DNA from: a virus
Taxonomy: Duplodnaviria > Heunggongvirae > Uroviricota > Caudoviricetes
IMG/VR virus record: IMGVR_UViG_3300028379_000400
Location: 64,001 to 112,428 of that record
Direction: 5' to 3' (one strand)
Length of the DNA stretch: 48,428 bases
The notes beneath the pieces are model-generated. The model did not search any database. It saw only the letters and a program-made list of their open reading frames with translations, and was not told the origin of the DNA. Made by a program: the position numbers and the translations under genes. Within the stretch, counting starts at the first letter, position 1. Every line of letters starts with the position of its first letter. Shown one piece after another: positions 6,050 through 48,428 of the stretch.

Positions 6050-6137
6050 GGAAGCGTGGCAGAGTGGCTTATTGCGCCTGGTTGCTAACCAGGTAGGTCT
6101 CCGGGCCTCGGGAGTTCGAATCCCCCCGCTTCCTCCA
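6050..6137 (+). tRNA. tRNA-Ser(GCT)
   Basis: GGAAGCG/CGCTTCC acceptor, CCTGG-TTGCTAA-CCAGG anticodon arm, long variable arm, TTCGAAT T loop, encoded CCA; U73. Confidence 0.93.
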
Positions 6138-6140
6138 TAC

Positions 6141-6230
6141 GGAGAGGTGGCAGAGCCTGGTTTATTGCAGCGGCTTCGAAACCCGTCGGATCGAAAGGTC
6201 CCGTGAGTTCAAATCTCACCCTCTCCGCCA
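6141..6230 (+). tRNA. tRNA-Ser(CGA)
   Basis: GGAGAGG/CCTCTCC acceptor, G73, long variable arm GGATC-GAAA-GGTCC, loop TTCGAAA; C31:C39 mismatch. Confidence 0.92.
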
Positions 6231-6240
6231 CACCCCTTTC

Positions 6241-6324
6241 GGGCCGGCTGGGCATGGGTGAGCCCAAGGCGCTGTAAACGCCCCGTGTTAAGCTGAGGTG
6301 GTTCAAATCCATCCCGGCCCACCA
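6241..6324 (+). tRNA. tRNA-Tyr(GTA)
   Basis: GGGCCGG/CCGGCCC acceptor, A73, GGCG-CTGTAAA-CGCC, extended variable region, CCA; C8 and an A27:C43 mismatch. Confidence 0.88.
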
Positions 6325-6390
6325 ATATCGAGGACTGTCGTGACCGACGAAAGCTTCACCTTACGACTTACGCGATTGCTGCTCAGCAGT

Positions 6391-6466
6391 GCGCGCGTAG
6401 GCAAGCGGTAAAGTCGGCGGGCTCAAACCCCGTTCTTCGTCAGTTCGAATCTGACCGCGCGCACCA
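6391..6466 (+). tRNA. tRNA-Leu(CAA) with a short (5-nt) variable loop
   Basis: GCGCGCG/CGCGCGC acceptor, A73, GCGGG-CTCAAAC-CCCGT, variable loop TCTTC, GTCAG-TTCGAAT-CTGAC; 76 nt. Confidence 0.85.
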
Positions 6467-6469
6467 TTT

Positions 6470-6545
6470 GCCCGATTGGCGGAATGGCAGACGCAGGCGT
6501 CTCAGAAACGTAAAGCTCCCGGTTCGAGTCCGGGATCGGGCACCA
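6470..6545 (+). tRNA. tRNA-Leu(CAG) with a short (5-nt) variable loop
   Basis: GCCCGAT/ATCGGGC acceptor, A73, Leu-type D arm GCGGAATGGCAGACGC, loop CTCAGAA, variable loop AAGCT; 76 nt. Confidence 0.87.
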
Positions 6546-6646
6546 CCCCCCAAGGAATTCTAGCATGATCGCTCTCCGCGCGCAGTGGCAACGCCAACAG
6601 ATCACCGCCGCGTAGTAGAGCATCCCCGCTCGGCTACACGGCGTCT

Positions 6647-6721
6647 GCCGGTGTAGCTCAGTGGTAGAGCATGGGTCTCCAAAACCCAGTGTCTTCGGTT
6701 CGATCCCGAACGCCGGCGCCA
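6647..6721 (+). tRNA. tRNA-Trp(CCA)
   Basis: Canonical cloverleaf, TGGGT-CTCCAAA-ACCCA, G73, CCA. Confidence 0.95.
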
Positions 6722-6722
6722 T

Positions 6723-6797
6723 TCCCTCGTGGTGCAACGGTAGCATTCCGGGCCCTGACCCCGGCGATACAGGTTCGAATCCAAGTCGAGGGAACCA
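6723..6797 (+). tRNA. tRNA-Gln(CTG), atypical (C33, distorted T stem, A73)
   Basis: TCCCTCG/CGAGGGA acceptor, CCGGG-CCCTGAC-CCCGG, T stem ACAGG/CCAAGT with a mismatch plus bulge. Confidence 0.75.
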
Positions 6798-6800
6798 ATT

Positions 6801-7232
6801 TTGGCCGATGTGACCTGCAAGGCATGTTCACGCTGCGGCCGAGTTAAACCACTAGAGGAGTTTCGTCGGTGCAGTGCGCACGGCGACGGCCGTACCTCTG
6901 AATGCAAGGCCTGTTTTAGCGCCCGAGAGGCGGAATATTACCGCTCGACGCCTAACAGGCGCGAGGCAATCAAGAATCGCCGGCAAGCGGTTCGAGCTAC
7001 GGCCAAGCAGGTAGTGCGAGCGTATTTGCTCCTGCACCCGTGCGTTGATTGTGGCGAAACCGACTTCGAAGTGCTGGAATTTGATCACCGAGACCCGTCG
7101 TCCAAGGAAAGCGACGTCTCGAAGTTGCTCACATTCTCCGTCGAGAAAGTCATAGCGGAAATCGCAAAATGCGACGTTCGCTGCGCCAATTGCCACAGAC
7201 GCAAAACGCGTAGGCAGTTCGGCTGGGTTTGA
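6801..7232 (+). CDS. HNH endonuclease with N-terminal zinc finger (putative homing endonuclease)
   Basis: CSRC...CKAC zinc finger; CVDCGETDFEVLEFDHRDP...KCDVRCANCHRRKT HNH core; TTG start 3 nt after tRNA-Gln. Confidence 0.85.
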   Translation: MADVTCKACSRCGRVKPLEEFRRCSAHGDGRTSECKACFSAREAEYYRSTPNRREAIKNRRQAVRATAKQVVRAYLLLHPCVDCGETDFEVLEFDHRDPSSKESDVSKLLTFSVEKVIAEIAKCDVRCANCHRRKTRRQFGWV

Positions 7233-7243
7233 GGAGTTTTCTG

Positions 7244-7477
7244 ATGAGCGCAGCGCTACCGCGACCATCTTCCCTGCGTGTGGGGAAGTCTGGTCATCCT
7301 GCCGCACTCGGAATGCGGAGTATCGCGGGTTCGAATCCCGCCACGCAGACCATTTTTGAACCAATGCACATGGCGCCTGCAGATGCCGACTTTATCGGCA
7401 TGCGCAACCGCCTCGAGGCCGATATGTACCGCGTATTCGGCGTGCCGACACCCATGCTGCGAACCCCGACACGGTAG
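7244..7477 (+). CDS. Small ORF running in frame through tRNA-Pro; portal-like C-terminal motif (alternative start at 7364)
   Basis: GAGGAG RBS at 7231-7236; C-terminus DADFIGMRNRLEADMYRVFGVPTPML. Confidence 0.4.
   Translation: MSAALPRPSSLRVGKSGHPAALGMRSIAGSNPATQTIFEPMHMAPADADFIGMRNRLEADMYRVFGVPTPMLRTPTR
7274..7352 (+). tRNA. tRNA-Pro(CGG)
   Basis: CTGCGTG/CACGCAG acceptor, A73, CCGCA-CTCGGAA-TGCGG, GCGGG-TTCGAAT-CCCGC, CCA. Confidence 0.92.
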
Positions 7478-7483
7478 GCATTC

Positions 7484-7559
7484 GCCGCCGTAGCTCAGTT
7501 GGAAGAGCGCCGTCTTCGTAATTCGGATGCCAGGGGTTCGATTCCTCTCGGCGGCACCA
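7484..7559 (+). tRNA. tRNA-Thr(CGT) with a weakened anticodon stem
   Basis: GCCGCCG/CGGCGGC acceptor, loop TTCGTAA; U30:U40 and C31:U39 mismatches. Confidence 0.88.
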
Positions 7560-7645
7560 AAGAATACCCAGAGGCGGCCGTCACGTACGCGCCGCCGGCG
7601 ACCGGGAAGTGTAGTGGCGACGCCCGCTGTCCCGGTCGCTCGTAT

Positions 7646-7723
7646 TGCGGGCAGGCGAGCAAGGTGCACGCGGCGGCCTGTTAAGCCGAGTTTAGGCTGG
7701 TTCGATCCCAGCTCCCGCAGCCA
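7646..7723 (+). tRNA. tRNA-Asn(GTT), atypical (A8, C7:U66, G27:A43)
   Basis: TGCGGGC/TCCCGCA acceptor, G73, CGGC-CTGTTAA-GCCG, GCTGG-TTCGATC-CCAGC, CCA. Confidence 0.82.
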
Positions 7724-7739
7724 TTTTCAGAGGCAATGC

Positions 7740-8045
7740 ATGTCTCAATCTGGCCGTACAACCGCGATGATCCGCGCGTTGCCAGATGCCGGCGCTATTA
7801 TCGTGGTGCCGAGCAAGACCAGCGTCCAGCCGATCAGCGATATGATCCTCGAGCTGCGCGGTCCGGACTTCGACAAGCGCTGTGATGTCGTCGCGGTCAC
7901 CGACCATGACACGGCTCAACAGCTTCTCGGCGCCAAGCGGTGGATCGCCTTCGATCACACCTTTCGCGTCATGACACCGCGGGCATTGGCGGATGAGGTC
8001 TACGCATTGGCGCGGATCTCCAATTACCAGTTCCCGCTCCAGTAA
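7740..8045 (+). CDS. Small protein with a degenerate P-loop-like N-terminus (SQSGRTTAMI)
   Basis: GAGG RBS; fills the spacer between tRNA-Asn and tRNA-Ala exactly. Confidence 0.55.
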   Translation: MSQSGRTTAMIRALPDAGAIIVVPSKTSVQPISDMILELRGPDFDKRCDVVAVTDHDTAQQLLGAKRWIAFDHTFRVMTPRALADEVYALARISNYQFPLQ

Positions 8046-8122
8046 GGGCTCATAGCTCAGTTTGGGAGAGCACCCGCCCTGCAAGCGGGATGTCGTCGGT
8101 TCGATGCCGGCTGGGTCCACCA
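8046..8122 (+). tRNA. tRNA-Ala(TGC) with C33
   Basis: G3:U70 alanine identity pair, A73, CCCGC-CCTGCAA-GCGGG, CCA. Confidence 0.9.
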
Positions 8123-8136
8123 TTTTCGGAGGCGTT

Positions 8137-8388
8137 ATGCAGCGTCGCAACTTCATTGGCGGTGTCGCCGGCGTAGCCGCGGCCGCCTCAATCACCAAAG
8201 CGGTAGCTGAGACTGCGCCCGCATCGGCTGACATGCTCCGCATCCGCATGTCAGGACCGCAGATGGTCATTGCCGACAGCCAGGGCCGGACGGTGACCGA
8301 TATCAGCAACGGCAAGCTGCGCTTTGTGTCGCCTGAGCGCGGTTTCGTGCACGGCTTTCCAGAAGTCCGCGTTCTCGAGCGCGGATAG
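8137..8388 (+). CDS. Small protein with a twin-arginine (Tat) signal peptide
   Basis: GGAGG RBS; MQRRNFIGGVAGVAAAASITKAVA|E gives RRxF, an h-region and an AxA site. Confidence 0.65.
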   Translation: MQRRNFIGGVAGVAAAASITKAVAETAPASADMLRIRMSGPQMVIADSQGRTVTDISNGKLRFVSPERGFVHGFPEVRVLERG

Positions 8389-8389
8389 C

Positions 8390-8464
8390 GTGCCGGGAGC
8401 CAGGTGGGACGGCGGCGGATTGCAAACCCGCAAGGAGCGAGTTCGATTCTCGCCCAGCACTCCA
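8390..8464 (+). tRNA. tRNA-Cys(GCA), atypical (G8, C5:A68, A31:C39)
   Basis: U73 cysteine discriminator, loop TTGCAAA, GCGAG-TTCGATT-CTCGC, CCA. Confidence 0.85.
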
Positions 8465-8469
8465 GTTTC

Positions 8470-8539
8470 GCGGCCTCGTTGGGCGGATACAGGCCCACCA
8501 AGCCAAGTGTCGACGGTTCAACTCCGTTAGGCCGCTCCA
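8470..8539 (+). tRNA. tRNA-Gly-like RNA, anticodon ACC, truncated D arm (70 nt)
   Basis: Perfect GCGGCCT/AGGCCGC acceptor with C2:G71 and U73, intact T arm and CCA; only 3 bp of anticodon stem (GGC/GCC) around loop CCACCAA; the segment between acceptor and anticodon arm is about 6 nt short. Confidence 0.7.
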
Positions 8540-8589
8540 AATCAGCGTCGGCCGGCCTCTGCTTGCAAGCTCCGGCGCTTAGTCACTGA

Positions 8590-8666
8590 TGCGGGATAGA
8601 GCAGCCCGGTAGCTCGTCTGGTTCATACCCAGAAGGTCGGCGGTTCGAATCCGCCTCCCGCTACCA
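8590..8666 (+). tRNA. Initiator-type tRNA-fMet(CAT)
   Basis: U1:U72 mismatch, A11:U24 pair, fMet-type D arm GAGCAGCCCGGTAGCTCG; anticodon stem TCTGG/CCAGA. Confidence 0.88.
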
Positions 8667-8670
8667 GTGA

Positions 8671-8746
8671 TGACGCTTAGCTCAGTCGGTAGAGCGATCG
8701 GCTGATAACCGATAGGCCCCACGTTCGAGCCGTGGAGCGTCAACCA
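8671..8746 (+). tRNA. tRNA-Ile(GAT)
   Basis: TGACGCT/AGCGTCA acceptor, ATCGG-CTGATAA-CCGAT, CCACG-TTCGAGC-CGTGG, A73, CCA. Confidence 0.93.
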
Positions 8747-36092: not shown

Positions 36093-37244
36093 ATGCGTTT
36101 TCACGTCGTAGCGTTGCCGCATACCCAAACCACATCGGCGTTCTCGGCCTGTGCCTACACCAACAAGGTAGTCGGCTTTTGCAAGATGATGATGGCGCGC
36201 GGTCACGAGGTCTTCCTCTACGCCGGCGAGCAGAACGACGCACCCTGCACCGAACTGATCACCTGCGTCAGCGAGACCAAGCGTGCCGAGATCGTCGGCG
36301 ACAAACCCTATGTCGAGGCCAGTTTCGACTACCTGCTGCCTCATTGGCAGACGTTCAACTACCGTGCGATCGCCGGGATCATCGAACGCCGTCAACCCCA
36401 CGACTTCCTGTGCCTGATCGGCGGCCTTGCTCAAAAGCAGGTGGCGGATGCACTGCCTGGCATGACGGCTGTCGAATGGGGCGTGGGCTACGGTGGCGTA
36501 TTCGCGCCATACCGCGTTTTCGAGAGCTACGCCTGGATGCATACCCACTACGGCGCCGCCGCGAGAAGTCCGACCGACGGTGACGGCAAATGGTACGATG
36601 CCGTGATCCCGGGCTACCTCGACCCTGCCGATTTCCCATTCAAGGGTGATCAGCCGGCACAAGCCAAACCCTATTACCTTTTCATAGGGCGCCTCGTCGA
36701 GCGCAAGGGTTTCCAGATCGCGATCGATGCCTGCAACGCGTTGGGTGCCCATCTTGTGCTTGCCGGTCCAGGCGCGCCTCCGGCTGGCGCCGACTATCGG
36801 GGAGTCGTCGGGCCGGTTGAGCGAGGTCGACTGATGGCCGGCGCGACTGCAGTGTTCGTGCCCACGCGCTATATCGAGCCGTTCGGCAACGTCGCGATCG
36901 AGGCCATGGCCTGCGGCACGCCGGTCATCACCACGGACTGGGGAGCCTTTACCGAAACGGTCGTCGACGGAGTCACAGGCTTCCGGTGTCACACGCTTAG
37001 AGAGTTCGTCGACGCCGCAAAGCGCGCGCCAGAACTCGATTCTTCGGTTATCCGGAAGCATGTCGTCGAGCGTTACTCACTTGAAGTCGTTGGCGCCAAA
37101 TACGAACGCTATTTCAAAAGGCTCGATGGCCTCTGGGGCATCGGGTGGCACGACCTGTCGGGCGTCGAAGCCGAACCGGCGCACCTTGGCGCGCCGGTTA
37201 AATCGCGGCGACGGGCTAAAACTTCCAGTTCAAGCCGACCTTGA
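36093..37244 (+). CDS. Glycosyltransferase, GT-B fold, family 4-like
   Basis: RGHEVFLYAGE, LFIGRLVERKG, EPFGNVAIEAMACGTPVITTDWGAFTETV (EX7E motif). Confidence 0.93.
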   Translation: MRFHVVALPHTQTTSAFSACAYTNKVVGFCKMMMARGHEVFLYAGEQNDAPCTELITCVSETKRAEIVGDKPYVEASFDYLLPHWQTFNYRAIAGIIERRQPHDFLCLIGGLAQKQVADALPGMTAVEWGVGYGGVFAPYRVFESYAWMHTHYGAAARSPTDGDGKWYDAVIPGYLDPADFPFKGDQPAQAKPYYLFIGRLVERKGFQIAIDACNALGAHLVLAGPGAPPAGADYRGVVGPVERGRLMAGATAVFVPTRYIEPFGNVAIEAMACGTPVITTDWGAFTETVVDGVTGFRCHTLREFVDAAKRAPELDSSVIRKHVVERYSLEVVGAKYERYFKRLDGLWGIGWHDLSGVEAEPAHLGAPVKSRRRAKTSSSSRP

Positions 37245-37908
37245 CGGTGTCGAACCCGAGGTTCGTCCAGTTGTCGAACTTGTATCCTGCCGGCGTCGGC
37301 GGGTCGGCCGCGATTGCGGTCTGGTATCCATGCCCGGTTCCGAAGCCGTAGTGGTCGTATTCGACCTTGACGCTAACATTTTCGGTCAACGCTTGCTCGA
37401 GCCCGACTCCGGCAACCCAACCGAGGAAGCCATCGGCCGGCGTTCCGACGTAGTTGGGGTTCGTGGTCTGCTGAAGAGCGCGGCCGCCATATAAAGCTGC
37501 ACCGCCCTTGGCATAGAGCAGAGTATTGCCGAAACCGACGCCGAGGCGCCCCGTGAGATCTGCATAGGCACCTCCGCTAAGCGTCAAGTCCTGATGCGAC
37601 GCGGCGTGAGACGAGCCGATAACGCCGGAGCCGGAGGCCGAGGCATAGCCGACGTCAACTTCGGGGCCGAAGACGATATTGCCAGTCTGGAAGTTGTACC
37701 CGGCCTGTACGCCACCAAGGGCTCCGGCGACCGGATAGTTGAACGGGCCCGGGACGACGCCCGGCGAGGTATCGCTTACCGATGCGCTGCCCCAAGCATA
37801 GCCGCCGTGGACGCCGATATAGCCGCCCGACCAGTCGTGAACGTCACCCGCAAGGGCGGGCCCCATCATCAGGGCAAACACAGTCATCAGGATTGAAATA
37901 AACTTCAT
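37216..37908 (-). CDS. Omp25/RopB-like outer-membrane beta-barrel protein with signal peptide
   Basis: GAAGGAGAG RBS; MKFISILMTVFALMMGPALA signal; DWSGGYIGVHGGY, GYNFQTGNIVFG, VKVEYDHY and terminal VKVGLNWKF. Confidence 0.92.
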   Translation of the reverse strand: MKFISILMTVFALMMGPALAGDVHDWSGGYIGVHGGYAWGSASVSDTSPGVVPGPFNYPVAGALGGVQAGYNFQTGNIVFGPEVDVGYASASGSGVIGSSHAASHQDLTLSGGAYADLTGRLGVGFGNTLLYAKGGAALYGGRALQQTTNPNYVGTPADGFLGWVAGVGLEQALTENVSVKVEYDHYGFGTGHGYQTAIAADPPTPAGYKFDNWTNLGFDTVKVGLNWKF

Positions 37909-38122
37909 GCGCTCTCCTTCTCGCTCGATCTGTCGGGGAGTTGGAAAGACCGCATCTGATGAGGTCCGCATTGACCTTGCAGAAAACGGCCGAGCACGAG
38001 GCGCGGCAGCCCTGTCAATATACGTCAATGCCTCCCCGACAGAGATCGAGGAGCGCGTAGTTCGGTCCTATTAGACCGTCAGATGCGGGGTTTCCACGCC
38101 CCAGAGCACCTGCAGGCGCTCC
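37909..38122 (-). ncRNA. Candidate structured 5' leader of the OMP gene with an RBS-sequestering helix
   Basis: Inverted repeats 37924-37940/38032-38050, 37909-37914/38051-38056, 37943-37966/38074-38095, 37968-37975/38024-38031, and hairpin 38103-38122. Confidence 0.6.
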
Positions 38123-38127
38123 AAGCC

Positions 38128-38159
38128 AATCCATATACGGATTAGCCCTGACGAATCAA
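38128..38159 (-). promoter_or_regulatory. Putative promoter for the OMP moron (TTGATT-N16-TATATG) with palindrome AATCC-N6-GGATT over the -10
   Basis: -35 at 38159-38154, -10 at 38137-38132; inverted repeat 38128-38132/38139-38143. Confidence 0.4.
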
Positions 38160-46988: not shown

Positions 46989-47126
46989 TACCCGGCCGCT
47001 GCCGCCAGCCGGGGGGTAGTAACCTGCCAATGAGACAGGCCGGACGCTTTTAGGTTTCCCTTGGACAGCACGACCGCCCCCGGCCAAAAGGCCGAGTACG
47101 GAGCCATGCCGCCAAGCACGCCCGCT

Positions 47127-47153
47127 CGCATCTGCGACGCTCAGATGCGTTTT
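47127..47153 (+). terminator. Hairpin with T tail
   Basis: CGCATCTG-CGACGCT-CAGATGCG-TTTT. Confidence 0.45.
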
Positions 47154-47318
47154 CACTGTCCGCTCAATACGCGGAATCGCTCCCGGAAATGGGGAGGCGA
47201 CAGCGATATCATTGGTCCGGGTTACTACGCCCAATCACCAGCAATAGGGCATATGAGCGCATGCTTCAAGCGAGGTAGCGCGGTCTCGAATACTGATGTC
47301 AAATTTTAAGCATCCGGC

Positions 47319-48428
47319 CTAGCACGGCGTCTCACCCGTTAGGATTTTCAGCCATTTCCAGTTCGCATATTTGTCGCCGACTTGCCTTATGTGGGTATAA
47401 CGCTGAAGAGAAGCCCACGACCTGTGCCCGCTGACGCCGGCCGCGCGTGGAATGCTCCAGCCCATCTCGAAGAGTCGCGATACACCTTCATGCCGAAGAT
47501 CATGGAAGTGAAGGCGGTCTTCATCCTCCATTTCCGGCTTGTTGATGCCGAGCGCATAGCACGCCCGGGTAAAGGACGCGCTGATCGCGTCCGCCGTATA
47601 CGGGAAGATCGGCCCCTGCGTTCTGGGCATCGTCCTGATGACCGATAGGGCTTCGGGGACGAGCTCGCACCAGACATCGTTTCCGATCTTCTGGCCGGGA
47701 TGTTTCATGTCCTTGATAAGGACTCGGCTACCATCCTCGTCGAGGTTAGACCACAGTGGACGCACGATCTCGTCTTGCCGACGGGTCGAGAAAATCGCAA
47801 AGGCGATGATCTTGTGCATAGGCGCTGCTTCTGGGCTGCGCACACGACGCTCGTAGAAGAAGGTCATGAGCGCGTTGAGCTCGTCTAGCGTTGGGCGCCG
47901 TTCCCTCTTTTCGGACTTGCCGGTGAGGCCCAATCGTTTTGTGACCGAGAAAGCACCCTTCATGACTTCTGCGTCCAGCGGGATACCCCATGCTGGCTTC
48001 GCTATCGCAAACACCGCCCCGAGGTGGGAAAGGTAGTTCTGGACGGTCTGCGGCTTCATTGATTGCCCTAGCTGTTGGGCTAGGCGCACAATGTCTTCCG
48101 ACGCGACTTCGGACGCCTCAATGTCGGCAATGTCATACTTCTTAAGAGACCGCAGCACCTGAGCCTTGGTGCGGCCGATCTTCTTGACGCTGCTCTCGAC
48201 ATAGCGGTCGATGGTCTCGCCAACCGTGATGCCGCGGATCTTCGCCTTCTCGATGCCGCCAGGTTGCTTGAGCTCGGCCTCGCGGTTTTTCATCCACGCG
48301 ACGGCACCGCCGCGTCTGTCGAAGGTGGCCGCCTCTCGATGGGTCGGCTTTCCCTTGCGCCTCAAGATGATTTGGGCTGTATAGCCGATCGATCCGTCGC
48401 GGCGTTCTCGCTCTCGAATGGTGCCCAT
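47319..48428 (-). CDS. int: Tyrosine integrase (resembles dusA-associated integrases)
   Basis: Catalytic STRRQDEI (R), FHDLRHEG (HxxR), GHRSW and RY (Tyr); MGTI..R.R.DG..GYTAQI N-terminus. Confidence 0.95.
   Translation of the reverse strand: MGTIRERERRDGSIGYTAQIILRRKGKPTHREAATFDRRGGAVAWMKNREAELKQPGGIEKAKIRGITVGETIDRYVESSVKKIGRTKAQVLRSLKKYDIADIEASEVASEDIVRLAQQLGQSMKPQTVQNYLSHLGAVFAIAKPAWGIPLDAEVMKGAFSVTKRLGLTGKSEKRERRPTLDELNALMTFFYERRVRSPEAAPMHKIIAFAIFSTRRQDEIVRPLWSNLDEDGSRVLIKDMKHPGQKIGNDVWCELVPEALSVIRTMPRTQGPIFPYTADAISASFTRACYALGINKPEMEDEDRLHFHDLRHEGVSRLFEMGWSIPRAAGVSGHRSWASLQRYTHIRQVGDKYANWKWLKILTGETPC

Follow-up and report, generated by a model that had tools for sequence, protein, structure and literature searches.

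Genomic setting of the OMP leader

The window, by which we mean the whole 48,428-nucleotide stretch of DNA analysed here, forms the right part of a 112-kb provirus and carries tRNA genes, tail genes, a lysis cassette and an integrase gene at 47319-48428. Twelve tRNA genes, lying at window 6050-8743, scored above the Rfam cut-off. An outer-membrane beta-barrel (OMP) gene lies antisense to the late genes and divergent from the genes for a DUF7940 holin and a lysozyme, and is preceded by a structured leader that comprises the 215 bases upstream of its ATG. From 5' to 3', the locus consists of the following elements:

38130-38159, minus strand: candidate promoter, with -35 TTGATT (38159-38154), an 18-nt spacer and -10 TATGGA (38135-38130)
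38103-38122, minus strand: first hairpin of a c4-a1b1-like motif, with two G:U pairs; an equivalent hairpin abuts the a1 hairpin in homologues and in c4-a1b1
38087-38102, minus strand: second hairpin (GGGG/CCCC), the loop of which contains site a1 (38097-38091); 100% paired across 35 distinct rows
38079-38088, minus strand: site b1, the 10-bp core of helix A, with b' as its partner (duplex mapping and homologue comparison)
38063-38078, minus strand: linker hairpin of the predicted fold, with no U-tract behind it
38045-38056, minus strand: anti-SD strand, whose partner is 38040-38032 (hairpin D) in fold A and the SD-ATG flank 37926-37909 in fold B
38032-38043, minus strand: P1 5' strand (helix B core); 99.7% of alignment cells paired
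37968-38031, minus strand: P2 domain, made of helix C and an irregular inner stem; 7 of 8 pairs with two-sided changes
37947-37967, minus strand: P3 hairpin with b' (37959-37950), from the predicted fold and pairing in homologues
37942-37947, minus strand: a' (UUUCCA), the complement of a1, in the P3-P1 junction, which is the same junction as in C4 rows
37929-37940, minus strand: P1 3' strand, of which 37938-37934 doubles as outer partner of helix A
37909-37928, minus strand: P1 extension and ribosome-binding site (RBS), with the Shine-Dalgarno sequence (SD) AGGAG at 37918-37914
37216-37908, minus strand: outer-membrane beta-barrel gene (230 aa, PF13505), the gene under putative control

The ATG at 37908 is backed by an alignment of OMPs, the nearest of which share 50-59% identity and belong to Hyphomicrobiales such as Kaistia, Hyphomicrobium and Bauldia. 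The protein belongs to a distinct barrel subfamily (GPF-Y, HQDLTL and QATT motifs) that is also found on several phage contigs (L011, L012-L016, L182) and on chromosomes, the majority of its members being without the switch leader. A glycosyltransferase ORF on the plus strand (36093-37244) shares 29 bp with the 3' end of the OMP gene; its PHROG match stops at residue 355 of 383, so the remaining tail may represent read-through from the insertion of the moron. Near 37176-37197 there is a GC-rich hairpin without a U-tract.

Architecture of the leader

The leader region folds with a z-score of -5.26, and none of 200 shuffles was equally stable. The first-pass annotation had proposed three minus-strand helices (A, B and C) and a 5' hairpin at 38122-38103, and all four are present where it placed them, the hairpin with its two G:U pairs. 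Helix B joins 38056-38032 with 37940-37909 (-38.4 kcal/mol) around a perfect 12-bp core (38043-38032/37940-37929); the extended stem of 24 bp is bulged and, as had been claimed, its pairing reaches 37909, the base before the ATG. B also encloses the SD, whose core AAGGA (37919-37915) forms a 5-nt bulge between paired blocks and is itself unpaired. Helix C (8 bp, 38031-38024/37975-37968) stacks on B in the MFE fold. Helix A, annotated as about 20 bp crossing B, proved to have 19 bp in blocks of 5, 10 and 4 (38095-38074/37966-37943, -27.9 kcal/mol) plus an outer extension (38103-38099/37938-37934), and because this extension uses bases of B the two helices compete directly as well as topologically. 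Both duplexes are more stable than 2000 of 2000 dinucleotide shuffles (extended A, -42.1 vs -22.3 kcal/mol; B, -39.2 vs -21.9 kcal/mol). In fold A the anti-SD strand is sequestered in hairpin D (38053-38045/38040-38032), which is predicted for most homologues, while in fold B hairpin P3 (37967-37963/37951-37947) exposes b'. The P2 domain of the window is longer and more degenerate than in most homologues.

A strict sigma70 scan found no promoter, and the promoter is therefore placed by position; the -10 box of the candidate is weak. In the window, as in many homologues, promoter-like -35 and -10 elements immediately precede the 5' hairpin, and both the c4-a1b1 alignment and many homologues have a TAnnnT-like box 6-8 nt ahead of the first hairpin. 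From the position of this element, transcription probably starts near 38123, upstream of helix A rather than downstream of B. No terminator was found after P1, so a free C4-like RNA would require nucleases for its release. Hammerhead-like CUGA...GAA words, seen on both strands, were rejected as a ribozyme since the core is incomplete and not conserved in homologues.

Folding energetics and predicted RBS access

Fold B is 2.6-4 kcal/mol more stable than fold A in the full window leader. Prefix folding of the growing transcript gave hairpin D, then helix C and then A from 37952, with B appearing only from 37913; A is the lowest-energy fold at nearly all 3' ends between 37952 and 37914, and B from 37913 onwards. 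The findpath barrier is 34 kcal/mol, which is an upper bound. Temperature, one of the triggers suggested earlier, looks a poor candidate, as the gap between A and B is 3.8 kcal/mol at 15 °C and still 2.3 kcal/mol at 45 °C.

The mean probability that the SD is unpaired separates the two states poorly (0.29 vs 0.19; 17 of 29 members), and for this reason the opening energy of the whole RBS was used, together with a chimera control. Across the 20 members with a short spacer, the median cost of opening the RBS was 8.0 kcal/mol in A and 13.0 kcal/mol in B (19 of 20). With the cognate 5' end this cost was 8.3 kcal/mol compared with 13.1 kcal/mol for a non-cognate one, the cognate end being the cheaper in 19 of 20 members. 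For the window leader, opening required 7.5-7.9 kcal/mol when free, 10.8 kcal/mol with a1b1 blocked and 12.0 kcal/mol with a1b1 removed; the contrast between its folds is small (7.4 kcal/mol in A vs 7.9 kcal/mol in B, the latter constrained on the P1 core only), and the chimera control gave 7.9 kcal/mol for the cognate and 9.3 kcal/mol for non-cognate 5' ends. The trend was reversed in the homologue L182. In fold A of several members the P1 3' strand can fold onto the SD, so the ON state may be leaky or require an extra step. In these models A is the predicted ON state and B the predicted OFF state, and the two folds are mutually exclusive.

Homologues and genomic contexts

A search anchored on the OMP (about 135 loci) recovered one homologous leader, L056 (E 4e-8), and later L182; the leader is absent from the OMP-relative loci L004, L005, L006, L008, L011, L184 and L185. 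Because the close relatives of the OMP that were checked mostly lack the leader, we reject an OMP-specific regulator. Pattern, BLAST and covariance-model searches yielded about 35 distinct copies from viral contigs and genomes, and 30 plasmid records of cultured Alphaproteobacteria carry copies of the leader. The copies reside in alphaproteobacterial prophages, plasmids and islands, including those of the cultured strains Methylorubrum extorquens DM4, Afipia carboxidovorans OM5, Ketogulonicigenium vulgare and Paracoccus versutus. BLAST of the window leader against phages and plasmids gave nothing useful, and an 18-nt pattern run on viral contigs and a 23-nt pattern with 3 mismatches run on 401 genomes gave almost exclusively chance matches in coding sequence, G151 excepted. 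L199 was discarded as a false match within a coding sequence.

The genes downstream of these leaders are four OMPs (window, L056, L182 and L220, the last counted by its N-terminal motif), many small membrane or secreted ORFs, an HTH regulator and a DUF2285 protein. As homologues precede unrelated genes, the element is portable and is not tied to OMPs. Among the top 25 families listed, endolysins are the commonest neighbours, and at least five phage copies (window, L202, L210, L218 and L219) sit divergently from a lysin in a moron-like arrangement, as probably does L182. The start codon falls at most 30 nt from P1 in 20 of 29 members. A role for the plus strand was rejected, since the minus strand folds better in 28 of 29 members and the conserved G:U pairs fit the minus strand only.

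Individual copies show features of their own. L233:2501-3013, on plasmid pYP1 of K. vulgare, is a family member upstream of a stand-alone DUF2285 gene, and L196 and L237 look similar; all three have an extra short hairpin after P1. The DUF2285 domain functions in activation and antiactivation of conjugative element transfer (PMC10359603). L186:1451-3304 holds a member between a divergent IS1-family transposase gene and a 74-aa membrane ORF, which suggests that this copy is carried as IS cargo. L230 is the sole copy with an a1/a' mismatch (4/6) and may be decayed or recombined.

Covariation of the two helices

Covariation in homologous leaders had been put forward as a check, and both crossing helices do covary. 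In 28 of 29 parsed copies, across six codes, all six a1:a' base pairs are Watson-Crick, compared with 18.6% of non-cognate pairs. For b1:b', with 26 distinct b1 8-mers, the mean energy is -18.9 kcal/mol for cognate and -9.6 kcal/mol for non-cognate pairs (0 of 100000 permutations), a permutation value that overstates independence because some copies are near-duplicates. The match of a1/b1 to a'/b' was not demanded by any search pattern. In P1, P2 and P3 (35 rows), 98.6% of cells are paired and 15 of 26 pairs have two-sided changes, counts taken from an alignment fitted to that same structure. Modest covariation (-15.2 vs -13.2 kcal/mol, p = 0.0014) is also seen where P1 is extended over the SD, and five plasmid copies show the same cognate a/b matches, as judged by eye. 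On this comparative evidence, both exclusive folds are conserved across homologues. The two-state leader of the first-pass annotation, with the RBS predicted to be more open in A and locked in B, is thus supported: both helices covary and the states are close in energy.

A second cassette in the same provirus

The window carries one further element of this kind:

46999-47260, minus strand: second C4/Xcc1-like cassette behind the integrase gene, with its a1 hairpin at 47233-47220 and its core at 47085-46999

The core matches RF02221 weakly (17 bits), and the 93-aa ORF downstream of the cassette (46988-46707) belongs to no known family; a search for cassettes related to this one found none. The codes of the two cassettes are orthogonal, with cognate duplexes of -25.5 and -29.0 kcal/mol and cross duplexes of -13.1 and -7.8 kcal/mol. 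Within the linker hairpin of the second cassette (47127-47157, minus strand), an a1-like word is followed by the exact b1 9-mer of the OMP leader (47149-47141). This sharing has a post hoc p of about 0.0015 and is energetically unremarkable, and either cross-talk or chance is possible.

Proposed mechanism and alternative explanations

Taken alone, the reading of this element as a two-state leader of the C4 type is very probably correct. The fuller proposal, that a C4/CI-type antisense cassette has been rewired as a translational switch for a cargo gene, trans repression included, is drawn by analogy and to our minds stands at even chances. Comparison and computation show the a1b1 region first, followed by the three-stem C4/Xcc1-like core with a' and b' complementary to a1b1. 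In the predicted fold A, a1b1 pairs with a'b' and the P1 3' strand while hairpin D holds the anti-SD strand, leaving the RBS comparatively open; in the predicted fold B, P1 closes and extends over the SD-ATG region, locking the RBS and displaying a' and b'. A fresh transcript would be trapped in A and translated, whereas B-folded or processed copies would accumulate and bind the a1b1 of new transcripts in trans, so that A is blocked and B is left. The outcome would be a burst of expression when the element first enters a cell and low expression afterwards, with the a/b code keeping different cassettes independent. Trans binding of a1b1 and processing are inferred because C4 and CI RNAs (phages P1/P7 and P4) are reported to be processed and to act in trans.

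Among the triggers named in the first-pass annotation, an sRNA and 5' processing fit best, the sRNA being the element's own C4-like core. Late plus-strand transcription, which runs antisense to the whole OMP message, could silence that message in lytic growth; nothing was found that links it to the choice between A and B. An OMP of lysogenic conversion would be expected to be ON in the lysogen, which simple autorepression leaves unexplained. More speculatively, mobile elements of Alphaproteobacteria may have turned the phage C4 immunity RNA into a portable, protein-free 'arrival timer' for cargo, which would be translated only until its own RNA builds up, with shared codes letting a resident element mute incoming cargo. 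This timer reading would, just as tentatively, extend to interchangeable codes through which cassettes on phages, plasmids and ICEs ignore or silence one another.

A purely cis-acting kinetic switch, in which metastable A is translated on fresh transcripts and relaxes to B with no RNA acting in trans, would also suit much of the folding data: at almost every 3' end between 37952 and 37914 the most stable fold is A, with B ahead from 37913, the barrier is up to 34 kcal/mol, and the leader has neither an a2b2 nor a terminator to free a small RNA. Such a switch, however, has no need for a' and b' in C4-like display loops, for at least six a-codes and 26 b-codes, or for the orthogonal codes of this prophage's two cassettes, and we consider it unlikely. 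Alternatively, B could be a resting OFF state that is opened at P1, and so turned ON, when a short a1b1 RNA, own or foreign, binds a'b' in trans. There is precedent in IsrK, the seqA homologue of Salmonella Gifsy-1 (isrK-orf45-anrP), which activates its own long transcript in trans (PMC4825925); L194 and L202 have a hairpin and U-tract between b1 and the core, and the second cassette of the prophage bears the b1 9-mer. The window linker hairpin has no such U-tract, though, blocking a'b' and the P1 3' strand in silico made RBS opening no cheaper (7.9 kcal/mol), and the site in the second cassette, itself enclosed in a hairpin, reaches only -16.4 kcal/mol, no better than 2.5% of genome windows, all of which makes activation of this kind decidedly unlikely.

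A shade less probable again is that fold B serves chiefly as a nuclease substrate, cut at the base of P1 by RNase P or in the extended stem by RNase III, and acts through mRNA turnover rather than RBS masking. RNase P cleaves C4 on the 5' side of P1, according to PMC5320573 (citing Hartmann 1995), and the extended B stem offers 24 bp with bulges; cleavage would free a C4-like RNA and inactivate or destabilise the message, which is compatible with the rewired cassette that we prefer. Yet the anti-SD strand that makes up the extension runs right up to the base before the ATG, and in 20 of 29 members no more than 30 nt separate P1 from the start codon. The internal loop of P2, conserved in most homologues, could bind a ligand or protein as part of an OMP-specific metabolite riboswitch or thermometer, but that loop is degenerate in the window, the temperature dependence is small, the downstream genes are unrelated and the close OMP relatives checked mostly lack the leader, so that we regard this as very improbable. 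It is scarcely credible that the element is a C4-like sRNA gene, vestigial or free-standing, that lies next to the OMP gene without controlling it: the family does move among unrelated genes, and C4-like RNAs occur as free chromosomal sRNAs in Acinetobacter, but the anti-SD strand, hairpin D and the spacing from P1 to the start are conserved and a1b1:a'b' is intact in 28 of 29 members.

If the rewired cassette is correct, a C4/CI immunity module has been converted so that one and the same RNA would serve arbitrary cargo genes of phages, plasmids and ICEs as sensor and as SD-masking platform, and sRNA-Xcc1, catalogued as a virulence-linked sRNA, would be tied to the C4 lineage. It also exposes an annotation gap, as no Rfam model recognises this leader family above its cut-off.

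Relationship to C4, sRNA-Xcc1 and IsrK

The classical C4 layout of phages P1/P7 (RF01695) and the c4-a1b1 motif, which is made of two adjacent hairpins with a1 in the second loop, are summarised in Weinberg 2010 (PMC2864571), and competition of a1b1 for a'b' was already proposed there; with a compact 215-nt unit and natural orthogonal codes, that proposal becomes testable. The OMP leader resembles this layout in having a candidate promoter, a two-hairpin a1b1 and then a three-stem RNA whose P3-P1 junction contains a' and whose P3 loop contains b'. The three stems are present in the MFE fold and in the 35-row pair counts, and the two-hairpin a1b1 lies upstream on the same transcript (38122-38079) by eye comparison with the published alignment, and is conserved in homologues. 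The junction sequence around a' matches C4 rows, and the variable a/b codes could confer specificity. The a1 loop of the window is identical to that of c4-a1b1 alignment row NZ_AAKA01000001, and the a1 loop of L056 equals that of row NC_001609 (phage P4). In the homologue L194, a1b1 is followed by a U-tract, the three-stem core and, over the SD, a second copy of the a/b repeat, which is the classical C4 layout, and this retained a2b2 links the family to C4. Together with the c4-a1b1 loop, the junction and the Xcc1 matches, it indicates that helix A corresponds to a1b1:a'b' in cis and helix B to P1 of a C4/Xcc1-like RNA.

The leader also departs from C4. An a2b2 is clearly present in L194 only; downstream of the window leader a1 does not recur within 300 nt (the strongest duplex there is -17.0 kcal/mol, against -25.4 kcal/mol for a1b1), and no second a1b1-like target of equal strength was found on the sense side of the 112-kb record. 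In place of an antirepressor there is an OMP, and icd/ant and replication genes are absent. The leader has gained an anti-SD strand and hairpin D, its P1 is extended over the RBS of the next gene, and its P2 contains an internal loop and, in the window, lacks a tetraloop. RF01695 did not match the window even at E=10. As two defining features (a2b2 and the antirepressor target) are missing, the leader is not a member of the C4 system, although it would work like C4 in part. In the literature searched, the coverage of which was incomplete, no paper joining C4 with Alphaproteobacteria was found and C4 and Xcc1 were co-mentioned only incidentally.

Rfam searches of the window at gathering and E-value thresholds returned only tRNAs and chance matches. 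In the Rfam check suggested earlier, no family matched the window copy, and homologues were sub-threshold to sRNA-Xcc1 (RF02221): seven of them match full-length at 22-36 bits against a cut-off of 53, and the OMP-leader copy itself gives no match to this model. Shared with sRNA-Xcc1 are the three-stem core and carriage on mobile DNA; the Xcc1-like internal loop of P2 is recognisable in L196 and most homologues, and degenerate and lengthened in the window. Xcc1 has been described as a trans-acting, HrpG/HrpX-induced sRNA (in a title cited by PMC12189769), whereas here the core is part of a 5' leader that also contains a1b1 and a stem predicted to mask the SD.

IsrK is similar in that a seqA-type 5' RNA pairs in cis with a downstream complement, a sequence that in IsrK can also work in trans and may do so here. 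Two conformers of similar energy differ in translation in IsrK and are predicted to do so here, where covariation supports both folds. The polarity is the opposite, however: the long-range pairing of IsrK is OFF and a short 5' RNA activates, whereas here the long-range pairing is predicted to be ON. The window also has no terminator after the 5' part and no leader ORF coupled to the gene; a U-tract of the kind that would release a short IsrK-type 5' RNA is missing from the window linker and present in L194 and L202.

The suggestion that this leader is undescribed as a class does not survive these comparisons, as its parts map one to one onto a C4/CI cassette and homologue cores match sRNA-Xcc1, if weakly. 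Judged by sequence and alignment, the OMP leader is a rewired, uncatalogued relative of the C4/sRNA-Xcc1 antisense RNAs and not a new class and, as modelled, it is a translation-type, SD-masking form of these RNAs in a phage moron.
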